Positions 4,373 to 59,741 of a stretch of DNA of 64,000 nucleotides are shown one piece after another. A program made the translations under genes and the position numbers. Below the pieces are notes generated by a model, which did not search any database, was not told the DNA's origin, and was given only the letters and a program-made list of their open reading frames with translations. Each line of letters starts with the position of its first letter. Positions within the stretch are counted from its first letter, which is position 1. Origin of the DNA: a virus; the IMG/VR virus record IMGVR_UViG_3300021139_002062. One strand, 5' to 3'.

Positions 4373-4629
4373 ACGAGCCAGTAGCCCATCGATTCAAATG
4401 GGAAGAACAAGAAGAATGGCAGTATGGCGATGGGTATGACGCAACAGGAGCACCCAACGACCTTGATTATTTTGCCTATGAACCTCTTTATGTCCACCCA
4501 ATGCGTGAATTAACGGATGAAGAAGTAATTATTCCAAGATTTTTAGCAGAAAATTATTTAAAAATTACGGAAACACCACGATTTAAAAGAATTTTAGAAG
4601 ATTCTTTAAAGAAAGCGAGTGGGAAATGA
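4369..4629 (+). CDS. Hypothetical acidic protein (86 aa)
   Basis: ATGA-coupled ORF. Its C-terminus SLKKASGK is encoded by cassette copy 2. Confidence 0.65.
   Translation: MNEPVAHRFKWEEQEEWQYGDGYDATGAPNDLDYFAYEPLYVHPMRELTDEEVIIPRFLAENYLKITETPRFKRILEDSLKKASGK
4607..4628 (+). promoter_or_regulatory. Junction cassette copy 2 (TAAAGAAAGCGAGTGGGAAATG)
   Basis: Same motif, ending in ATG 4626. Confidence 0.7.
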
Positions 4630-4796
4630 TAATGATATTAGTTGGAGTAATCATGTTTGGCCTAGCCATTTTATTGGCAAAAATTAATGATAAATTTATG
4701 GCGTTCTTTGTATTATGTGCAATTGCCTTAATCACCCTTGGCGTTGCCCAGGCGATATGGAAATTATTAGCCTATTTGGTGGTAATAAATGAATAA
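4626..4796 (+). CDS. Small two-TM membrane peptide (56 aa)
   Basis: Hand-translated: MIMILVGVIMFGLAILLAKINDKFMAFFVLCAIALITLGVAQAIWKLLAYLVVINE. It is preceded by cassette copy 2. Confidence 0.55.
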   Translation: MIMILVGVIMFGLAILLAKINDKFMAFFVLCAIALITLGVAQAIWKLLAYLVVINE

Positions 4797-7450: not shown

Positions 7451-7633
7451 ATTGAAATTAAAAAGGTGCGTGGTGAAAACAAAATACAACCAATTTTTAT
7501 GCGCCAACATGAGTACGAGGCAATTATCAGTTTGGGTTATGACCCTAAGGAGTTCCTCAAAAAACTAATCCGACACACTGCCAAAAAGCGCCGTTGGGCT
7601 TGGTACTTCGAACAGAAAGGCAATCAACAATGA
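7448..7633 (+). CDS. Hypothetical basic protein (61 aa)
   Basis: ORF behind cassette copy 8. Confidence 0.6.
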   Translation: MIEIKKVRGENKIQPIFMRQHEYEAIISLGYDPKEFLKKLIRHTAKKRRWAWYFEQKGNQQ

Positions 7634-7965
7634 GTACCTATAAGCCAGACCTTTGGGAGGTCGTTCGTATCAGCAAAGACGGTGAGCACATTGACAAGGT
7701 GTACGCCTCGTGGCGTGGCGGTTATATCACACCCGACGAGTGGCGACTCAGCTCAGGCATCACCCAAGTTGTTGAGAATGATTCTCATTATCAAATACAC
7801 AACCACTCAGGGAGTATTTACCTCTGCCCCAAACAGGCTCGGGGCACCACCTTGTTCACCCAAGCCATATTGGAGCAACTCAAGGAGGGCATGGAGGAGA
7901 ACGGTGGCTGGATGGAGTTGATTGGTATTGAATTACTAGTAAAGGATGATCATGGTAAAAGTTAA
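7630..7965 (+). CDS. Hypothetical protein (111 aa)
   Basis: ATG 7630 is in an ATGA overlap. The track start at 7594 is less likely. Confidence 0.6.
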   Translation: MSTYKPDLWEVVRISKDGEHIDKVYASWRGGYITPDEWRLSSGITQVVENDSHYQIHNHSGSIYLCPKQARGTTLFTQAILEQLKEGMEENGGWMELIGIELLVKDDHGKS

Positions 7966-11917: not shown

Positions 11918-11992
11918 GTCTCGTTGGTGTTAACGGTAGCATGACGGTCTCCAAAACCGTTGGTTGGGGTTCAAATCCCTAACGGGTCGCCA
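11918..11992 (+). tRNA. trnW: tRNA-Trp (anticodon CCA), CCA-encoded
   Basis: Hand-folded. The anticodon stem ACGGT/ACCGT is perfect, with loop CTCCAAA. The T-arm is TGGGG-TTCAAAT-CCCTA. The acceptor stem GTCTCGT/ACGGGTC has one U-U mismatch at 2:71. The D-arm is weak (G-U pairs) and the variable loop is 4 nt. Confidence 0.65.
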
Positions 11993-14969: not shown

Positions 14970-15033
14970 GCTAATATGGGTAGACGAATTGACCCCAACT
15001 GAAGTTCAATTCTAACGTTAAAAGGAGTTTTAT

Positions 15034-15549
15034 ATGCAGTCCAACAAAGTAAAAGTAGTAACAGGTAAAGTTCGTTTTTCATATGCCAATGTATTTGTTC
15101 CAAAGGCAAGTATGGAGGGAGGCACACCAAAATATTCCGTATCGATTTTGATTCCAAAGTCCGATAAAGAAGGTGTGGCTAAATTGCAAAAAGCATTTGA
15201 AGATTGCAAGACAAGTAACGCTGCATTTTTTGGCGGATCAGTGCCAAAAATGTTGAAAGGTGGATTGCGTGACGGCGATGTTGAGAAAGAAGACGAAGCA
15301 TATGCTGGTCACTATTTTATCAATGCCAATTCAGCACAAAAGCCAGACATTGTAGATGCCAATCGTGAGGCACTGTTTGATCAAAACGATTTCTACAGTG
15401 GCTGTTATGGTCGTGCTTCAGTAACATTTTATCCATACAATGCACAAGGTTCCAAAGGCATTGCTTGTGGGTTAAATAACTTACAGAAGTTAGAAGATGG
15501 TGAGAAGTTAGGTGGCAGTTCTTCTGCTGCCGCAGATTTCGCAGTATAG
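15034..15549 (+). CDS. Phage ssDNA-binding protein (DUF2815-type)
   Basis: 171 aa. The N-terminal VVTGKVRFSYANVF and Gly/aromatic OB-fold pattern are typical of DUF2815, which partners with DUF2800 and PolA. Confidence 0.7.
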   Translation: MQSNKVKVVTGKVRFSYANVFVPKASMEGGTPKYSVSILIPKSDKEGVAKLQKAFEDCKTSNAAFFGGSVPKMLKGGLRDGDVEKEDEAYAGHYFINANSAQKPDIVDANREALFDQNDFYSGCYGRASVTFYPYNAQGSKGIACGLNNLQKLEDGEKLGGSSSAAADFAV

Positions 15550-50791: not shown

Positions 50792-51232
50792 TTAATCCAC
50801 AAAAGCTTTCATTTTCTGCGCATATTCAAAACTCTTAATGCGAGAAATGATTTCACGGGCTTGTAATGTAATAAACACTACTGCTCCGCCATCATCACCT
50901 GGATCTACAACAAAACGATCTCCACCGTATTTAATTGTCCTTACCAAATCACCCACTTTGCACCATGGGCCTTCTATCCAAGGCTCTAAGGTTTCCGGCG
51001 ATTTATATGCTAACGGTCCAATTTGTACTACTTTGGCTACTGTTTCATTGAACTTCAGTGTTTGTTGAGTTTCATCAACAAAAATGATGCCACCTTTGCT
51101 CTTTATTTTTTGTCTGCGTAACTGTACTAATACTCTGTCTCCAGCCACCTCGACACCATGGTCTACAACAGGGAAGCATTCTTCTTCCGAGCGTAAATCT
51201 GGCTCTTCTTTTACATTTAAATCAAGTGCCAT
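50792..51232 (-). CDS. GroES/Cpn10-like co-chaperonin
   Basis: GDRVLVQ...SKGGII...AKVVQIGP...KVGDLV...YGG mirrors the GroES blocks DRVIVK / SAGGIV / AVG.G / VGDIV. Confidence 0.55.
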   Translation of the reverse strand: MALDLNVKEEPDLRSEEECFPVVDHGVEVAGDRVLVQLRRQKIKSKGGIIFVDETQQTLKFNETVAKVVQIGPLAYKSPETLEPWIEGPWCKVGDLVRTIKYGGDRFVVDPGDDGGAVVFITLQAREIISRIKSFEYAQKMKAFVD

Positions 51233-57389: not shown

Positions 57390-57427
57390 ATATCAACTAA
57401 TGCAAAAAATTAATTATTTCCGCCCAA
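57387..57427 (-). promoter_or_regulatory. Promoter-like motif P7
   Basis: TTGGGCG-GAAATAATTAATTTTTT-GCATTAGT-TGATAT-ATG. Confidence 0.55.
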
Positions 57428-57456
57428 TTTCCAAAAATAAACCAAAATTTGTATGG

Positions 57457-57572
57457 GTAGTACTAGTAGTATGGGTATATTCACTCTTTTTGTTTTTTAT
57501 TTTATTAAAAAAAAAAAAAAAAAAAAAAAACTAGAATAAGGGGTACTACTGGTACTACTGGTACACGACTTT
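57457..57572. repeat. Copy B of the repeated intergenic element (A24 tract)
   Basis: Matches 1-120. A diverged continuation (57598-57662) parallels 146-216. Confidence 0.9.
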
Positions 57573-57815
57573 TTAATTGTGGTTTAAATACAATAACTTA
57601 CAGCAATAATGTTTCACGGAATGTTTCACGAAAGGGGTACAAATTTGTATGGGTACAAAAAAATAAATCCGCCCTACTTTTTAAAAAAAAAATTTTAGAA
57701 GTTGACTTTTTTTAGTTTGGTGGCAAATTGCACAAACTTGTGGTTTGGGCTCCCCCCGGCCGCCGCCACGCCGAGAAGGTTCAAATTGGGGGTATCGATT
57801 TTTGGAAGACCCCCT

Positions 57816-58305
57816 TGCACCAGATTGGTGCATTGGTTGCCTGATCATGCCCCAGATTGGTGCAATGGCAGACTGCCGAAGTGAGTACTCACTAACATGG
57901 CTAAGTGAGTGAGTACTAACTAACATCTCCAGGCATAGTGAGTACTTACTAACATGGCTAAGTGAGTGAATACTCACTAACATACAGGCACTGCACCAGG
58001 TTGGTGCATTGGCTGCGTGGCTGCACCAGGTTGGTGCATTGGCTAAGTGAGTGAGTACTAACTAACTAGCTGCACCAATATGGTGCAGTGGTGGAGGGGC
58101 AATGTGGGTTAGTGCTTACTCACTTAGGCGTGGGCGATGTGGCAGTTTGGTGATGTGCGATATAGTGCAAGAATAGAGGGATAATTCATGCATTATTATG
58201 CACAATCAATTTGGAGGCGTTTTAAAGGGGCATAGAGGCATTTTCCCTATTTTTGATACCTTACCATTAAAAAGTAATTATCTCGATTTGCACCAACCTG
58301 GTGCA
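57816..58305. repeat. Array of 17-bp palindromes TGCACCA-N3-TGGTGCA
   Basis: Full sites lie at 57816-57832, 57992-58008, 58022-58038, 58071-58087 and 58289-58305, with a half site at 57850-57864. A diverged copy lies at 59509-59525. Confidence 0.85.
57880..58124. repeat. Array of 14-bp palindromes AGTGAGTACTCACT (six copies, 0-2 mismatches)
   Basis: Copies lie at 57880-57893 (perfect), 57908-57921, 57937-57950, 57965-57978, 58050-58063 and 58111-58124. Three sit within a 28-bp unit GGCTAAGTGAGTGAGTACTAACTAAC. Confidence 0.85.
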
Positions 58306-58443
58306 TCATATAAAGGATCAATTTCCCATTACTTTTAGTAATATTAGGGTAAACCCTATTAGGGTTTTTATTTCTTGTATTTTTTGGTAGATATGCTATT
58401 TTATAGGTGTAGTACTAAACTAATTAATAAAGGAAATAAAACC

Positions 58444-59064
58444 ATGCAAGTATCAACTATTCACATTAGTAAAACGACTGGAAAACTAGATGGATTTAAA
58501 GCGATTAGCACGAATACAACTACTAATCCATATTGCATTAAACAAAATGCCAGTGGTGACAATTCAAATATTTGTACTAAATGTTATTCTCATACAATGC
58601 TAAAATCCTATCGTAAGAATATGCAACCCTCCCTTGAGAGAAATTCTCTAGCACTATCTAATAGCATTTTGCCTAATGAACAATTACCTAAAGTGATGGA
58701 GGCATTTTTTAGATTTAACGCACATGGCGAATTGATTAATGAAAACCATTTAATTAATCTAGTCAATATTGCACTAAATAATCCCCATTGCAATTTTGCA
58801 TTATGGTCAAAAAGGAATGACATTATAACTAAGTATTTCAGTCACAATGAAAAACCTAGTAATCTAATACTAATTTTTTCCAATTCAAAAATATCTAAAG
58901 TGCTACCAAAACCACCAAAATATTTTGACAAAACCTTTAACAATGTGTTAGAAAATGAGTTTGTAGAATCGCAAAATTGTACGGGTCAACAATGCAAGAA
59001 TTGTTTATTGTGTTATTCTCATAATAATGTAAATACAATCGTTGAAAAGGTTAAAAAGTATTAA
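58444..59064 (+). CDS. Cys-rich GP88-family-like protein (206 aa)
   Basis: NPYC...CTKCYSH, FRFNAHGEL...P.CNFALWSK and C..C..CLLCYSH resemble PF17338 (GP88; recalled, unverified). ATG 58444 is the preferred start. Confidence 0.45.
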   Translation: MQVSTIHISKTTGKLDGFKAISTNTTTNPYCIKQNASGDNSNICTKCYSHTMLKSYRKNMQPSLERNSLALSNSILPNEQLPKVMEAFFRFNAHGELINENHLINLVNIALNNPHCNFALWSKRNDIITKYFSHNEKPSNLILIFSNSKISKVLPKPPKYFDKTFNNVLENEFVESQNCTGQQCKNCLLCYSHNNVNTIVEKVKKY

Positions 59065-59403: not shown

Positions 59404-59741
59404 TAGGGTAAACCCCTATTGACAATCCACTGTTGCAGCAAAACAACAGATTACCTGATTGTTGTATAAATACTACATTAGGGTAAACCCCTATTGACTT
59501 TTTGATAATGCACCAAATCGGTGCGCCTGGATTAGGGTAAACCCTAAGCGTCAAAACGGCCCATATTCAACGATCTACACCCACCTAACCCACTTGTATC
59601 AAACCCATACAAAACGCCTCTATGACCCCTTAAAACCCGTTTAAATCGATGTCATTTTTTTACTTATTAAAACCCTTGTAAATTATTTAGTAAAACCTAG
59701 GGTAAACCCTAATAGACAAATTACTTGTATTTGTTTATCCT
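59404..59741 (+). promoter_or_regulatory. Early regulatory array: four TAGGGTAAACCC(C)TA operator-like palindromes, three abutting T(T/A)GAC(A/T)
   Basis: Sites lie at 59404-59418 (+TTGACA), 59479-59493 (+TTGACT), 59533-59546 and 59698-59711 (+TAGACA-N17-TATCCT ending at 59741). Confidence 0.55.

Follow-up and report, generated by a model that had tools for sequence, protein, structure and literature searches.

Interleaved NtrC-type and SlmA-type consensus sites in a phage control region suggest a landing pad for host proteins

Introduction

Which proteins bind a dense array of palindromes in non-coding phage DNA, and are they encoded by the phage or by its host? The question is raised by positions 57816-58305 of a 64,000-nucleotide virus sequence (IMG/VR record IMGVR_UViG_3300021139_002062), the whole of which was analysed and is called the window below. 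The original prediction, made from the sequence by itself, had described two different palindromes interleaved in this array, taken them to imply two different dimeric DNA-binding proteins, and suggested a parS centromere, an origin or a master early/late switch. Both palindrome families are indeed present, at a density far beyond chance, and two different dimeric proteins are indeed implied, as both motifs match an experimentally defined protein-binding consensus: that of NtrC for motif A (TGCACCA-N3-TGGTGCA; TGCACCANNNTGGTGCA) and, for motif B (AGTGAGTACTCACT), that of SlmA, a nucleoid-occlusion factor and blocker of FtsZ (PMC3020112). We propose, with a probability that we put at roughly 0.6, that the array is a cluster of high-affinity sites for host NtrC and SlmA, and would thereby form a landing pad on replicating phage DNA.

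Results

The two palindromes match the binding sites of NtrC and SlmA

Letter for letter, motif A is the NtrC consensus published for E. coli, a 17-bp palindrome (TGCACCAnnnTGGTGCA) in which a re-analysis of genomic-SELEX sites found GCAnnA and TnnTGC to be conserved (PMC8743547); in Shewanella, the same motif with a www centre has been ascribed to NtrC (PMC2532739). The window contains seven copies at two mismatches or fewer, as compared to 0.28 expected, a number reached in 0 of 100 shuffles. Five of these copies are perfect, and the one previously counted as a half site departs from the consensus at a single position (Table 1). The conserved right flank that had been noted is real (TTGGC). 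Two pairs of sites stand about three helical turns apart, A1 and A2 at 32 bp and A3 and A4 at 30 bp, a spacing that suits NtrC oligomerisation.

Motif B was identified by a literal string search of the literature, in which the matches returned were SlmA papers only. It encloses the 12-bp consensus of the SlmA-binding site (SBS), GTGAGTACTCAC, which is bound with a Kd of about 50 nM, and the exact 14-mer is included in the oligonucleotide GCAGTGAGTACTCACTGC used for electron microscopy in the same study (PMC3020112). Its flanks and variants also agree with the extended consensus oligonucleotide SBScons (AAGTAAGTGAGCGCTCACTTACGT) and with the natural SBS17 (GTTAGTGA...) (PMC4423959). LexA variants, CIRCE, HAIR, LacI- and MerR-type operators and the NrdR box were considered as well for motif B, and none matched both spacing and sequence. 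Six copies lie in the array, with 0, 1, 1, 1, 1 and 2 mismatches in order of position, all remaining matches in the window being at 3 mismatches. When scored against the degenerate SlmA consensus GTRAGYRCTYAC, the window yields seven matches at one mismatch or fewer where 1.23 are expected, six of which fall inside the array: one is the perfect GTGAGTACTCAC, one other is an exact fit, and four carry one mismatch.

These six SBS-like copies are packed within 240 bp of non-coding phage DNA and alternate with the NtrC-type sites. Successive sites of either kind are tightly packed without overlapping, their centres lying 22.5-38.5 bp apart, mostly 28-32 bp, and the composite unit that had been described is real: in it, an extended 20-bp SBS comes after an NtrC site. 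Judged by these sequence matches, the sites are very probably targets of SlmA-type and NtrC-type proteins of the host.

Variation among relatives follows the tolerances of SlmA

Through TerL, 339 relatives were collected from IMG/VR, of which 80 loci were fetched and reduced to 43 non-redundant arrays (loci and contigs are designated by L numbers). The array occupies a syntenic position in these relatives, about 1.6-1.9 kb upstream of TerL, and both motifs are conserved there, besides recurring in unrelated contigs. Of the 43 arrays, 38 have NtrC-type sites, 116 in all at two mismatches or fewer (54 of them perfect), with 40 bp as the commonest spacing. In a logo of the 116 sites, GCACCA-N3-TGGTGC is nearly invariant and N3 is A/T-rich, in agreement with the Shewanella NtrC motif. 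SBS-type sites are found in 23 of the 43 arrays (58 sites, as compared to 1.5 expected).

Within each SBS half-site, SlmA is strict for G, T, A and G at positions 1, 2, 4 and 5, whilst any purine is accepted at position 3, and position 6 is flexible with a preference for a pyrimidine (Tonthat et al.; PMC3020112). The SBS-like copies of the relatives vary in the same manner: the four SlmA-tolerant columns (positions 3 and 6 of each half-site) hold 73 of 79 mismatches and positions 4-5 the other six, whilst positions 1-2 are free of them (binomial p = 4e-28 when a uniform spread is assumed, a nominal value for sites that share ancestry). Position 6 is T in 79 half-sites, C in 36 and G in one, hence a pyrimidine in 115 of 116; position 3 is G in 80, A in 23 and T in 13, of which T falls outside the published rule, and 99 of the 116 half-sites fit GTRAGY. 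The flank consensus, A[T/A]GT[T/A]A, corresponds to the extended site of about 20 bp that binds a dimer of dimers (GTAAGT/GTTAGT-type flanks). Asymmetry is seen in 42 of 51 variant SBS copies, which argues for selection on half-site identity and not on self-pairing. Taken together, the pattern of variation is that predicted by selection for SlmA binding, unlike that of an RNA hairpin or a cruciform.

Host genes most likely encode the cognate proteins

That the window has no recognisable cognate repressor gene had already been stated, and our searches agree. Among its 95 ORFs (open reading frames), no TetR_N, HTH_8 (Fis-type), Sigma54_activat, ParA/ParB or other helix-turn-helix (HTH) family was found at E <= 1e-3, and a six-frame search with E. 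coli SlmA, NtrC C-terminus and Fis sequences returned nothing below E = 0.3, small proteins of unknown fold not being excluded by it. As no binder is recognisable in the window, the cognate proteins are most likely host-encoded and, going by the identity of the motifs, would most likely be the host's NtrC and SlmA.

The same sites also occur in phages with which the window shares no proteins. Tandem perfect SBS were found in 12 IMG/VR contigs, seven of them from the family of the window phage. The contigs L085, L091, L092 and L093 have 59-64% G+C and no matches to window proteins; L085 and L093 carry the full GTTAGTGAGTACTCACTA flank on their SBS, and the L085 array lies about 150 bp before terS, beside a CAGTCGGCA tandem repeat. 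L095 (35% G+C) has no matches to window proteins, yet displays similar TAGGGGTAAACCC and -35-like elements, and is probably a relative of the window phage. Tandem perfect NtrC sites were found in 49 contigs, mostly of the window phage's family, with L118, L131/L115 and L133 having no proteins in common with the window. L131, L115 and L133 contain NtrC-site pairs 32 bp apart, whilst the A+T-rich contig L118 contains eleven closely packed NtrC-type sites (4530-4775) in an intergenic stretch between divergent genes, upstream of an operon for an HNH endonuclease and terminase. In the four unrelated contigs checked (L085, L093, L118 and L133), the arrays are upstream of terminase genes. Common motifs in phages with unrelated proteins point to a common host factor.

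As to the host, three relatives (TerL 82-90% identical) are found in one metagenome-assembled genome (MAG) labelled 'uncultured beta proteobacterium'. HrcA and its operator CIRCE are not known from enteric gamma-proteobacteria and are present in beta-proteobacteria, and the combination of SlmA, HrcA and NtrC sites in this phage family is consistent with a beta-proteobacterial host. The host is thus probably a beta-proteobacterium, the MAG link being weak evidence. According to one paper, most gamma- and beta-proteobacteria use SlmA (PMC12693692).

Arrays of relatives contain further host-type sites

Perfect sigma-54 promoters (TGGCACGGATCTTGCA; 18.7 bits, the maximum score) are present in the arrays of L029, L031, L052 and L074, where they begin some 9 bp beyond an NtrC site. 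The first such promoter of L031 and of L074, which itself follows an NtrC site, has a Fur-box-like site just downstream. The loci of this sub-lineage (L031 806-1113, L029 8140-8290, L052 1890-2060 and L074 545-780) also display face-to-face sigma-54-like pairs (CTGGCAC...TTGCC/TAGCAAGATCTATGCCAG). Many relatives share a conserved sigma-54-like match some 333 bp ahead of TerL; it was set aside, as it lies inside the 328-aa gene and was treated as coding conservation. Perfect CIRCE sequences (TTAGCACTC-N9-GAGTGCTAA, with differing spacers) occur in L037/L041/L049 and L060, and copies with one to two mismatches in other relatives, all of them 1580-1865 bp upstream of TerL; Fur-box-like AATGAGAATCATTATC is found in many relatives' arrays. 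A further palindrome, (T)ATGTTGC-N3-GCAACAT, usually ATGTTGCACCGCAACA, recurs in the arrays of L013, L020, L030, L034, L050, L055, L080 and L083, and no known protein could be matched to it.

Host-type sites in the window array itself are of the NtrC and SlmA types only. It contains no Fur box and no CIRCE at four mismatches or fewer, and no sigma-54 promoter (TGGCAC-N5-TTGCA) reaches 10 bits on a home-made position weight matrix in 57390-58450. An NtrC enhancer with its promoter was therefore rejected as a reading of the window, where only a weak GG-N10-GC sequence between A3 and A4, unconvincing as a promoter, was found. The sole Fur-like match in the window, GATAATGAGAATCATTCTC (7774-7792; two mismatches to GATAATGATAATCATTATC), lies in the early gene block inside the ORF at 7594-7965, and is the same variant as that seen in relatives' arrays. 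A 146-aa protein encoded on the minus strand (50792-51232) exceeds the gathering score for Cpn10/GroES (E = 4e-6). That the phage has a co-chaperonin and the arrays of relatives have CIRCE copies hints at manipulation of the host GroEL system.

Genomic setting of the array

The array sits in a divergent non-coding stretch of about 1 kb (57390-58444), and the minimum of the cumulative GC skew falls in its region. On the minus-strand side lies a packaging and structural operon (a 101-aa ORF, a 328-aa ORF that weakly matches terminase families, TerL and portal), with the array about 430 bp upstream of its first gene; on the plus-strand side lie small genes, the first of which encodes a GP88-family protein. 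A sigma-70-like promoter (TTGATA-17-AATTAT, 58253-58281) is aimed at this GP88-family gene, and site A6 is directly downstream, a position over the start of an early promoter that may be that of an operator. As had been predicted, the only ORFs across the array are built from its repeats: one of 100 aa on the minus strand (57681-57983), the largest and with no Pfam match, and two of 55 and 60 aa on the plus strand. Rearrangement of the array from relative to relative makes a coding function unlikely. Rfam gave no match in the array region, the only matches in the window, both elsewhere, being a DUF2815 RNA and a tRNA.

The G+C-rich tract previously reported near the array was confirmed. It is conserved together with a hairpin (Table 1) that in most relatives adjoins the TerL-proximal NtrC site, and in relatives tract and hairpin lead on to a AAGTTTGTATAAT-like element and a T-run. 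A search for canonical minus-strand promoters of the sigma-70 or sigma-54 type gave none at 57745-57815. The tract with the hairpin is possibly a cos site or an (unusual) late-promoter element.

Table 1 Coordinates of binding-site-like and neighbouring features in the window, and of tandem SBS in four unrelated contigs.
Feature	Position	Strand	Sequence	Remarks
NtrC-consensus site A1	57816-57832		TGCACCAGATTGGTGCA	perfect
NtrC-type site A2	57848-57864		TGCCCCAGATTGGTGCA	1 mismatch
NtrC-consensus site A3	57992-58008		TGCACCAGGTTGGTGCA	perfect
Weak sigma-54-like GG-N10-GC	58010-58025	+	TGGCTGCGTGGCTGCA	<10 bits
NtrC-consensus site A4	58022-58038			perfect
NtrC-consensus site A5	58071-58087		TGCACCAATATGGTGCA	perfect
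NtrC-consensus site A6	58289-58305			perfect, isolated
NtrC-type site A7	59509-59525			degenerate, 2 mismatches; adjoins TAGGGTAAACCCCTATTGACT element
SBS1	57881-57892		GTGAGTACTCAC	perfect consensus; motif B from 57880
SBS2	57909-57920		GTGAGTACTAAC	core of extended 20-bp form GTGAGTGAGTACTAACTAAC (57905-57924); motif B from 57908
SBS3	57938-57949		GTGAGTACTTAC	exact fit to GTRAGYRCTYAC; motif B from 57937
SBS4	57966-57977		GTGAATACTCAC	one half-site weakened at strict position 5; motif B from 57965
SBS5	58051-58062		GTGAGTACTAAC	in composite unit (A4 + extended SBS); motif B from 58050
SBS6	58108-58123		GTTAGTGCTTAC (58108-58119), GTGCTTACTCAC (58112-58123)	overlapping registers, the first reads better; motif B from 58111
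G+C-rich tract and GGGGG...CCCCC hairpin	57745-57815		GGCCGGGGGG.CCC-type	tract 57745-57780; conserved
Tandem SBS, L085	4009-4090
Tandem SBS, L093	420-470
Tandem SBS, L091	12753-12931
Tandem SBS, L092	987-1037

Several other elements were observed around the array. On both sides of a poly(A)26 run (57508-57531) lie short iteron-like repeats (GGTACTACTGGTAC and related) in inverted arrays (57440-57575). Relatives display the same architecture with a lineage-specific repeat sequence (GCGGGGGTA, CTAGGGTTG, TGACACACT or CCCTGTC), an indication that a phage protein, for instance an origin initiator or a small terminase, co-evolves with it. Relatives' contigs often end 1350-1430 bp upstream of TerL, exactly at a poly-T run or within repeats; a reading of these ends as genome termini (cos) was rejected, and we take them for assembly breaks. 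Outside the array, a direct repeat (AATGTTTCACG) occurs twice at 57608-57632 and includes TGTTTCACG, which we take to be a half-site of the bacterial parS consensus TGTTTCACGTGAAACA; related forms in relatives are CACGTGAAACA...CGTGAAACA (L010) and TTTCACAATGTGAAA (L024, L041). A third conserved palindrome, TAGGGTAAACCC(C)TA, is found at 58345, 59404, 59479, 59533 and 59698, often joined to a TTGACA-like hexamer, and in relatives as 12 perfect copies across 11 arrays. A 55-nt inverted repeat with 75% complementarity (58205-58259 and 59596-59650) encloses the GP88-family gene and a 59-aa gene; each arm is near an NtrC-type site and holds a CCCCTTTAAAACGCC...AAATTGAT box that is also present in relatives.

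Further afield, the plus-strand genes encode a D5-type primase, DUF2800, a DUF2815/Enc34 single-strand-binding protein, PolA, an SNF2 helicase, endonuclease VII, a class II ribonucleotide reductase and an Acb2/Tad1-like protein, the last being one ORF with a match to this anti-CBASS sponge family. The minus-strand genes encode lysozyme, an SU10-type adaptor, a Mu gpT-like capsid protein, glycosyltransferases and the Cpn10-like protein. A DUF2815 RNA motif (Rfam RF03084, 65.5 bits; 14977-15036) lies directly upstream of an ORF starting at 15034, which is probably the DUF2815/Enc34 gene, and a tRNA-Trp(CCA) gene lies at 11918-11992. A DNA search gave no close cultured relatives; the nearest cultured TerL proteins, of Caulobacter phages, are 41% identical, too distant for a comparison of non-coding DNA.

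Discussion

If the array is a landing pad for host NtrC and SlmA, its effects would grow with phage replication. Six tandem SBS per genome copy would draw SlmA off the nucleoid onto phage DNA throughout the cell, where DNA-bound SlmA, the form that is active against FtsZ, would block Z-ring assembly and host division, so that the division inhibitor would consist of DNA alone, without a phage protein. In E. coli, multicopy tandem SBS (pUC-2xSBS plasmids) cause a SlmA-dependent division block, and in B. subtilis a multicopy plasmid with a single Noc-binding site (NBS) causes a Noc-dependent division defect (PMC4726725). A replicating phage genome with six tandem SBS would be the natural counterpart of the SBS plasmid. 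We give a division block just short of an even chance of being the selected function of the SBS part. The interleaved NtrC sites would bind phosphorylated NtrC, which in relatives with sigma-54 promoters in the array would drive transcription according to nitrogen status; in the window, which has no good sigma-54 promoter, they would more likely be an NtrC sink, or operators as at 58289.

More tentatively, phages of beta- and gamma-proteobacteria might carry non-coding 'host-factor landing pads', arrays of sites at consensus strength (for SlmA, NtrC, HrcA, Fur and the sigma-54 holoenzyme) which, once amplified, would reprogramme the cell without a phage protein. SBS would activate SlmA everywhere and halt division; CIRCE would drain HrcA and induce the host chaperonins, the window phage having its own GroES-like gene; Fur boxes would drain Fur; and NtrC sites would blunt or read the nitrogen-starvation response. 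Such a module would have arisen or spread in unrelated phage lineages, usually beside the terminase operon. SBS and NtrC sites are known elements, and no report of phage-borne SBS arrays, NtrC arrays, decoy sites or dense multi-factor phage arrays including SBS was found in the literature searched.

Several points weigh against a landing pad for NtrC and SlmA. The identification rests wholly on a sequence match to consensus sites defined in E. coli, and the link to a host is a MAG label, which is weak evidence. As the relatives' sites share ancestry, the p value given above and the other statistics overstate independence. The division block by SBS plasmids in E. coli was scored with about 4-fold overproduction of SlmA. 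No convincing sigma-54 promoter lies in the window array; SlmA of V. cholerae can activate transcription, so that SBS could be regulatory (PMC5519180); and the position of the array upstream of terminase genes would also fit control of a late promoter, or packaging.

The strongest alternative, plausible though less likely, is that the same host proteins bind and that the selected function is control of phage transcription instead of takeover. The late packaging operon or the early promoters would then be governed by NtrC (together with sigma-54 where there is one), SlmA, Fur and HrcA in the roles of enhancer, operator or roadblock proteins. The outcome might be a read-out of host physiology or a copy-number timer, with a scarce host repressor being titrated by replication until late genes are released. 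Early and late gene blocks do diverge on either side of the array; the TerL-proximal NtrC site is constant in its position beside the conserved hairpin, the G+C-rich tract and the AAGTTTGTATAAT-like element; A6 stands at the start of a sigma-70-like promoter; and in L031 and L074 a Fur-box-like site follows an NtrC-linked perfect sigma-54 promoter. Moreover, an SBS within a promoter represses, V. cholerae SlmA activates Pchb (PMC5519180 for activation), and the arrays of unrelated phages lie upstream of terminase genes. However, no canonical sigma-54 or minus-strand sigma-70 promoter is found in or next to the window array, E. coli SlmA reportedly works without regulating transcription, and six tandem SBS with five to six NtrC sites exceed what operators need. 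Transcriptional control and takeover are not mutually exclusive, and an early/late regulatory role, as had been suggested, is possible as a secondary reading.

It is improbable that the array is instead an accessory region for packaging, in or next to a cos or pac site, at which host proteins would aid terminase as architectural factors in the way that IHF does at lambda cosB. Such a role is hinted at solely by position: the array adjoins a conserved G+C-rich tract resembling a cohesive end and is about 430 bp upstream of the terminase operon, and SBS or NtrC arrays lie upstream of terS/TerL in the unrelated L085, L093, L118 and L133. The type and number of sites vary freely among close relatives, unlike a terminase recognition site; contig breaks at the poly-T run or repeats reflect assembler behaviour and are not data on genome ends; and neither SlmA nor NtrC is known to bend DNA as a cofactor of packaging.

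Less probable still is the model of the original prediction, in which two phage-encoded dimeric proteins would bind the motifs, and these would form a repressor/operator switch, a parS centromere or the iterons of an origin. Dyad-symmetric sites in arrays, a GC skew minimum and divergent gene blocks that coincide with the region, and the many small early ORFs of no known function all speak for it. Both motifs are the consensus of host proteins, however, down to position-specific tolerances, the same motifs recur in phages sharing no proteins with the window, and the arrays of relatives further contain CIRCE, Fur-box-like and sigma-54 promoter sequences. Operators for a master repressor of the phage are not borne out, the window having no detectable protein of the HTH, TetR or Fis type; nor is a parS site, as the 95 ORFs include no ParA/ParB family (E <= 1e-3) and the motifs are not parS. 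An origin fares no better: the sites are palindromes shared with unrelated phages instead of directional iterons, and the iteron-like inverted array is a separate element. Finally, a structured non-coding RNA, cruciform-forming DNA or inert host-captured DNA is barely credible, although palindromes could form hairpins and the region has no convincing ORF, given the lack of an Rfam match there, variant SBS that lose self-complementarity and keep half-site identity in 42 of 51 cases, motif A arms that are invariant and not covarying around a variable N3, and motif A sites that persist in 38 of the 43 diverged arrays, many of which have copies that match the consensus perfectly.

Were the array to act as a landing pad for SlmA and NtrC, host division would be blocked without any phage gene, by an inhibitor that protein-based annotation would miss. 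A hypervariable array of NtrC, sigma-54, CIRCE and Fur-type sites, which has its like in unrelated phages, suggests that the non-coding 'dark matter' of phages can encode host takeover or sensing, and the combination of sites offers a sequence-only clue to host range, namely a host having SlmA, HrcA and NtrC together, which fits beta-proteobacteria.

Comparison with known systems

The array shares with the chromosomal SBS of E. coli and V. cholerae the 12-bp palindrome GTGAGTACTCAC, the extended flanks (GTAAGT/GTTAGT) and the tolerated positions, and with the pUC-2xSBS plasmids the placement of tandem SBS on a multicopy extrachromosomal replicon. In contrast, the roughly 24-52 chromosomal SBS of E. 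coli are dispersed, mostly intragenic, absent from Ter and rarely perfect.

At glnAp2, two strong NtrC sites are centred 32 bp apart, and the array resembles an NtrC enhancer (upstream activating sequence) of this type in its exact 17-bp consensus and in site pairs 30-32 bp apart, as do the arrays of some relatives in having perfect sigma-54 promoters alongside NtrC sites. The window differs in that five perfect and one near-perfect sites are accompanied by no convincing -24/-12 promoter, and the relatives in that their sigma-54 promoter follows an NtrC site by only about 9 bp, as compared to about 100 bp in the enhancer module. The enhancer also belongs to the context of nitrogen-assimilation genes, whereas the array belongs to a phage control region.

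Phage genomes are known to carry sites for host regulators: cyanophages have NtcA sites and Pho boxes, and CTXphi, GIL01 and coliphage 186 have LexA boxes. There, as would hold for the array, a borrowed host transcription factor ties the phage programme to host physiology, including nitrogen stress. Those sites are single and stand at individual promoters, whereas the array consists of dense, consensus-strength sites for several host proteins, one of which, SlmA, is primarily a regulator of cell division.

Phage-encoded inhibition of FtsZ is known from T7 Gp0.4. Lambda Kil is likewise a phage protein that inhibits FtsZ (PMC3961180). Both block host cytokinesis during infection, as proposed for the array; they are phage proteins acting on FtsZ or ZipA, whereas here phage DNA would activate a host inhibitor. 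Titration of a regulator by multicopy sites underlies the Fur titration assay and multicopy inhibition by nif promoters. In these systems and in the Noc/NBS plasmids, as would apply to the array, many strong extrachromosomal sites redistribute a scarce DNA-binding protein; those constructs were made in the laboratory, whereas the array is natural, conserved and composed of several kinds of site.

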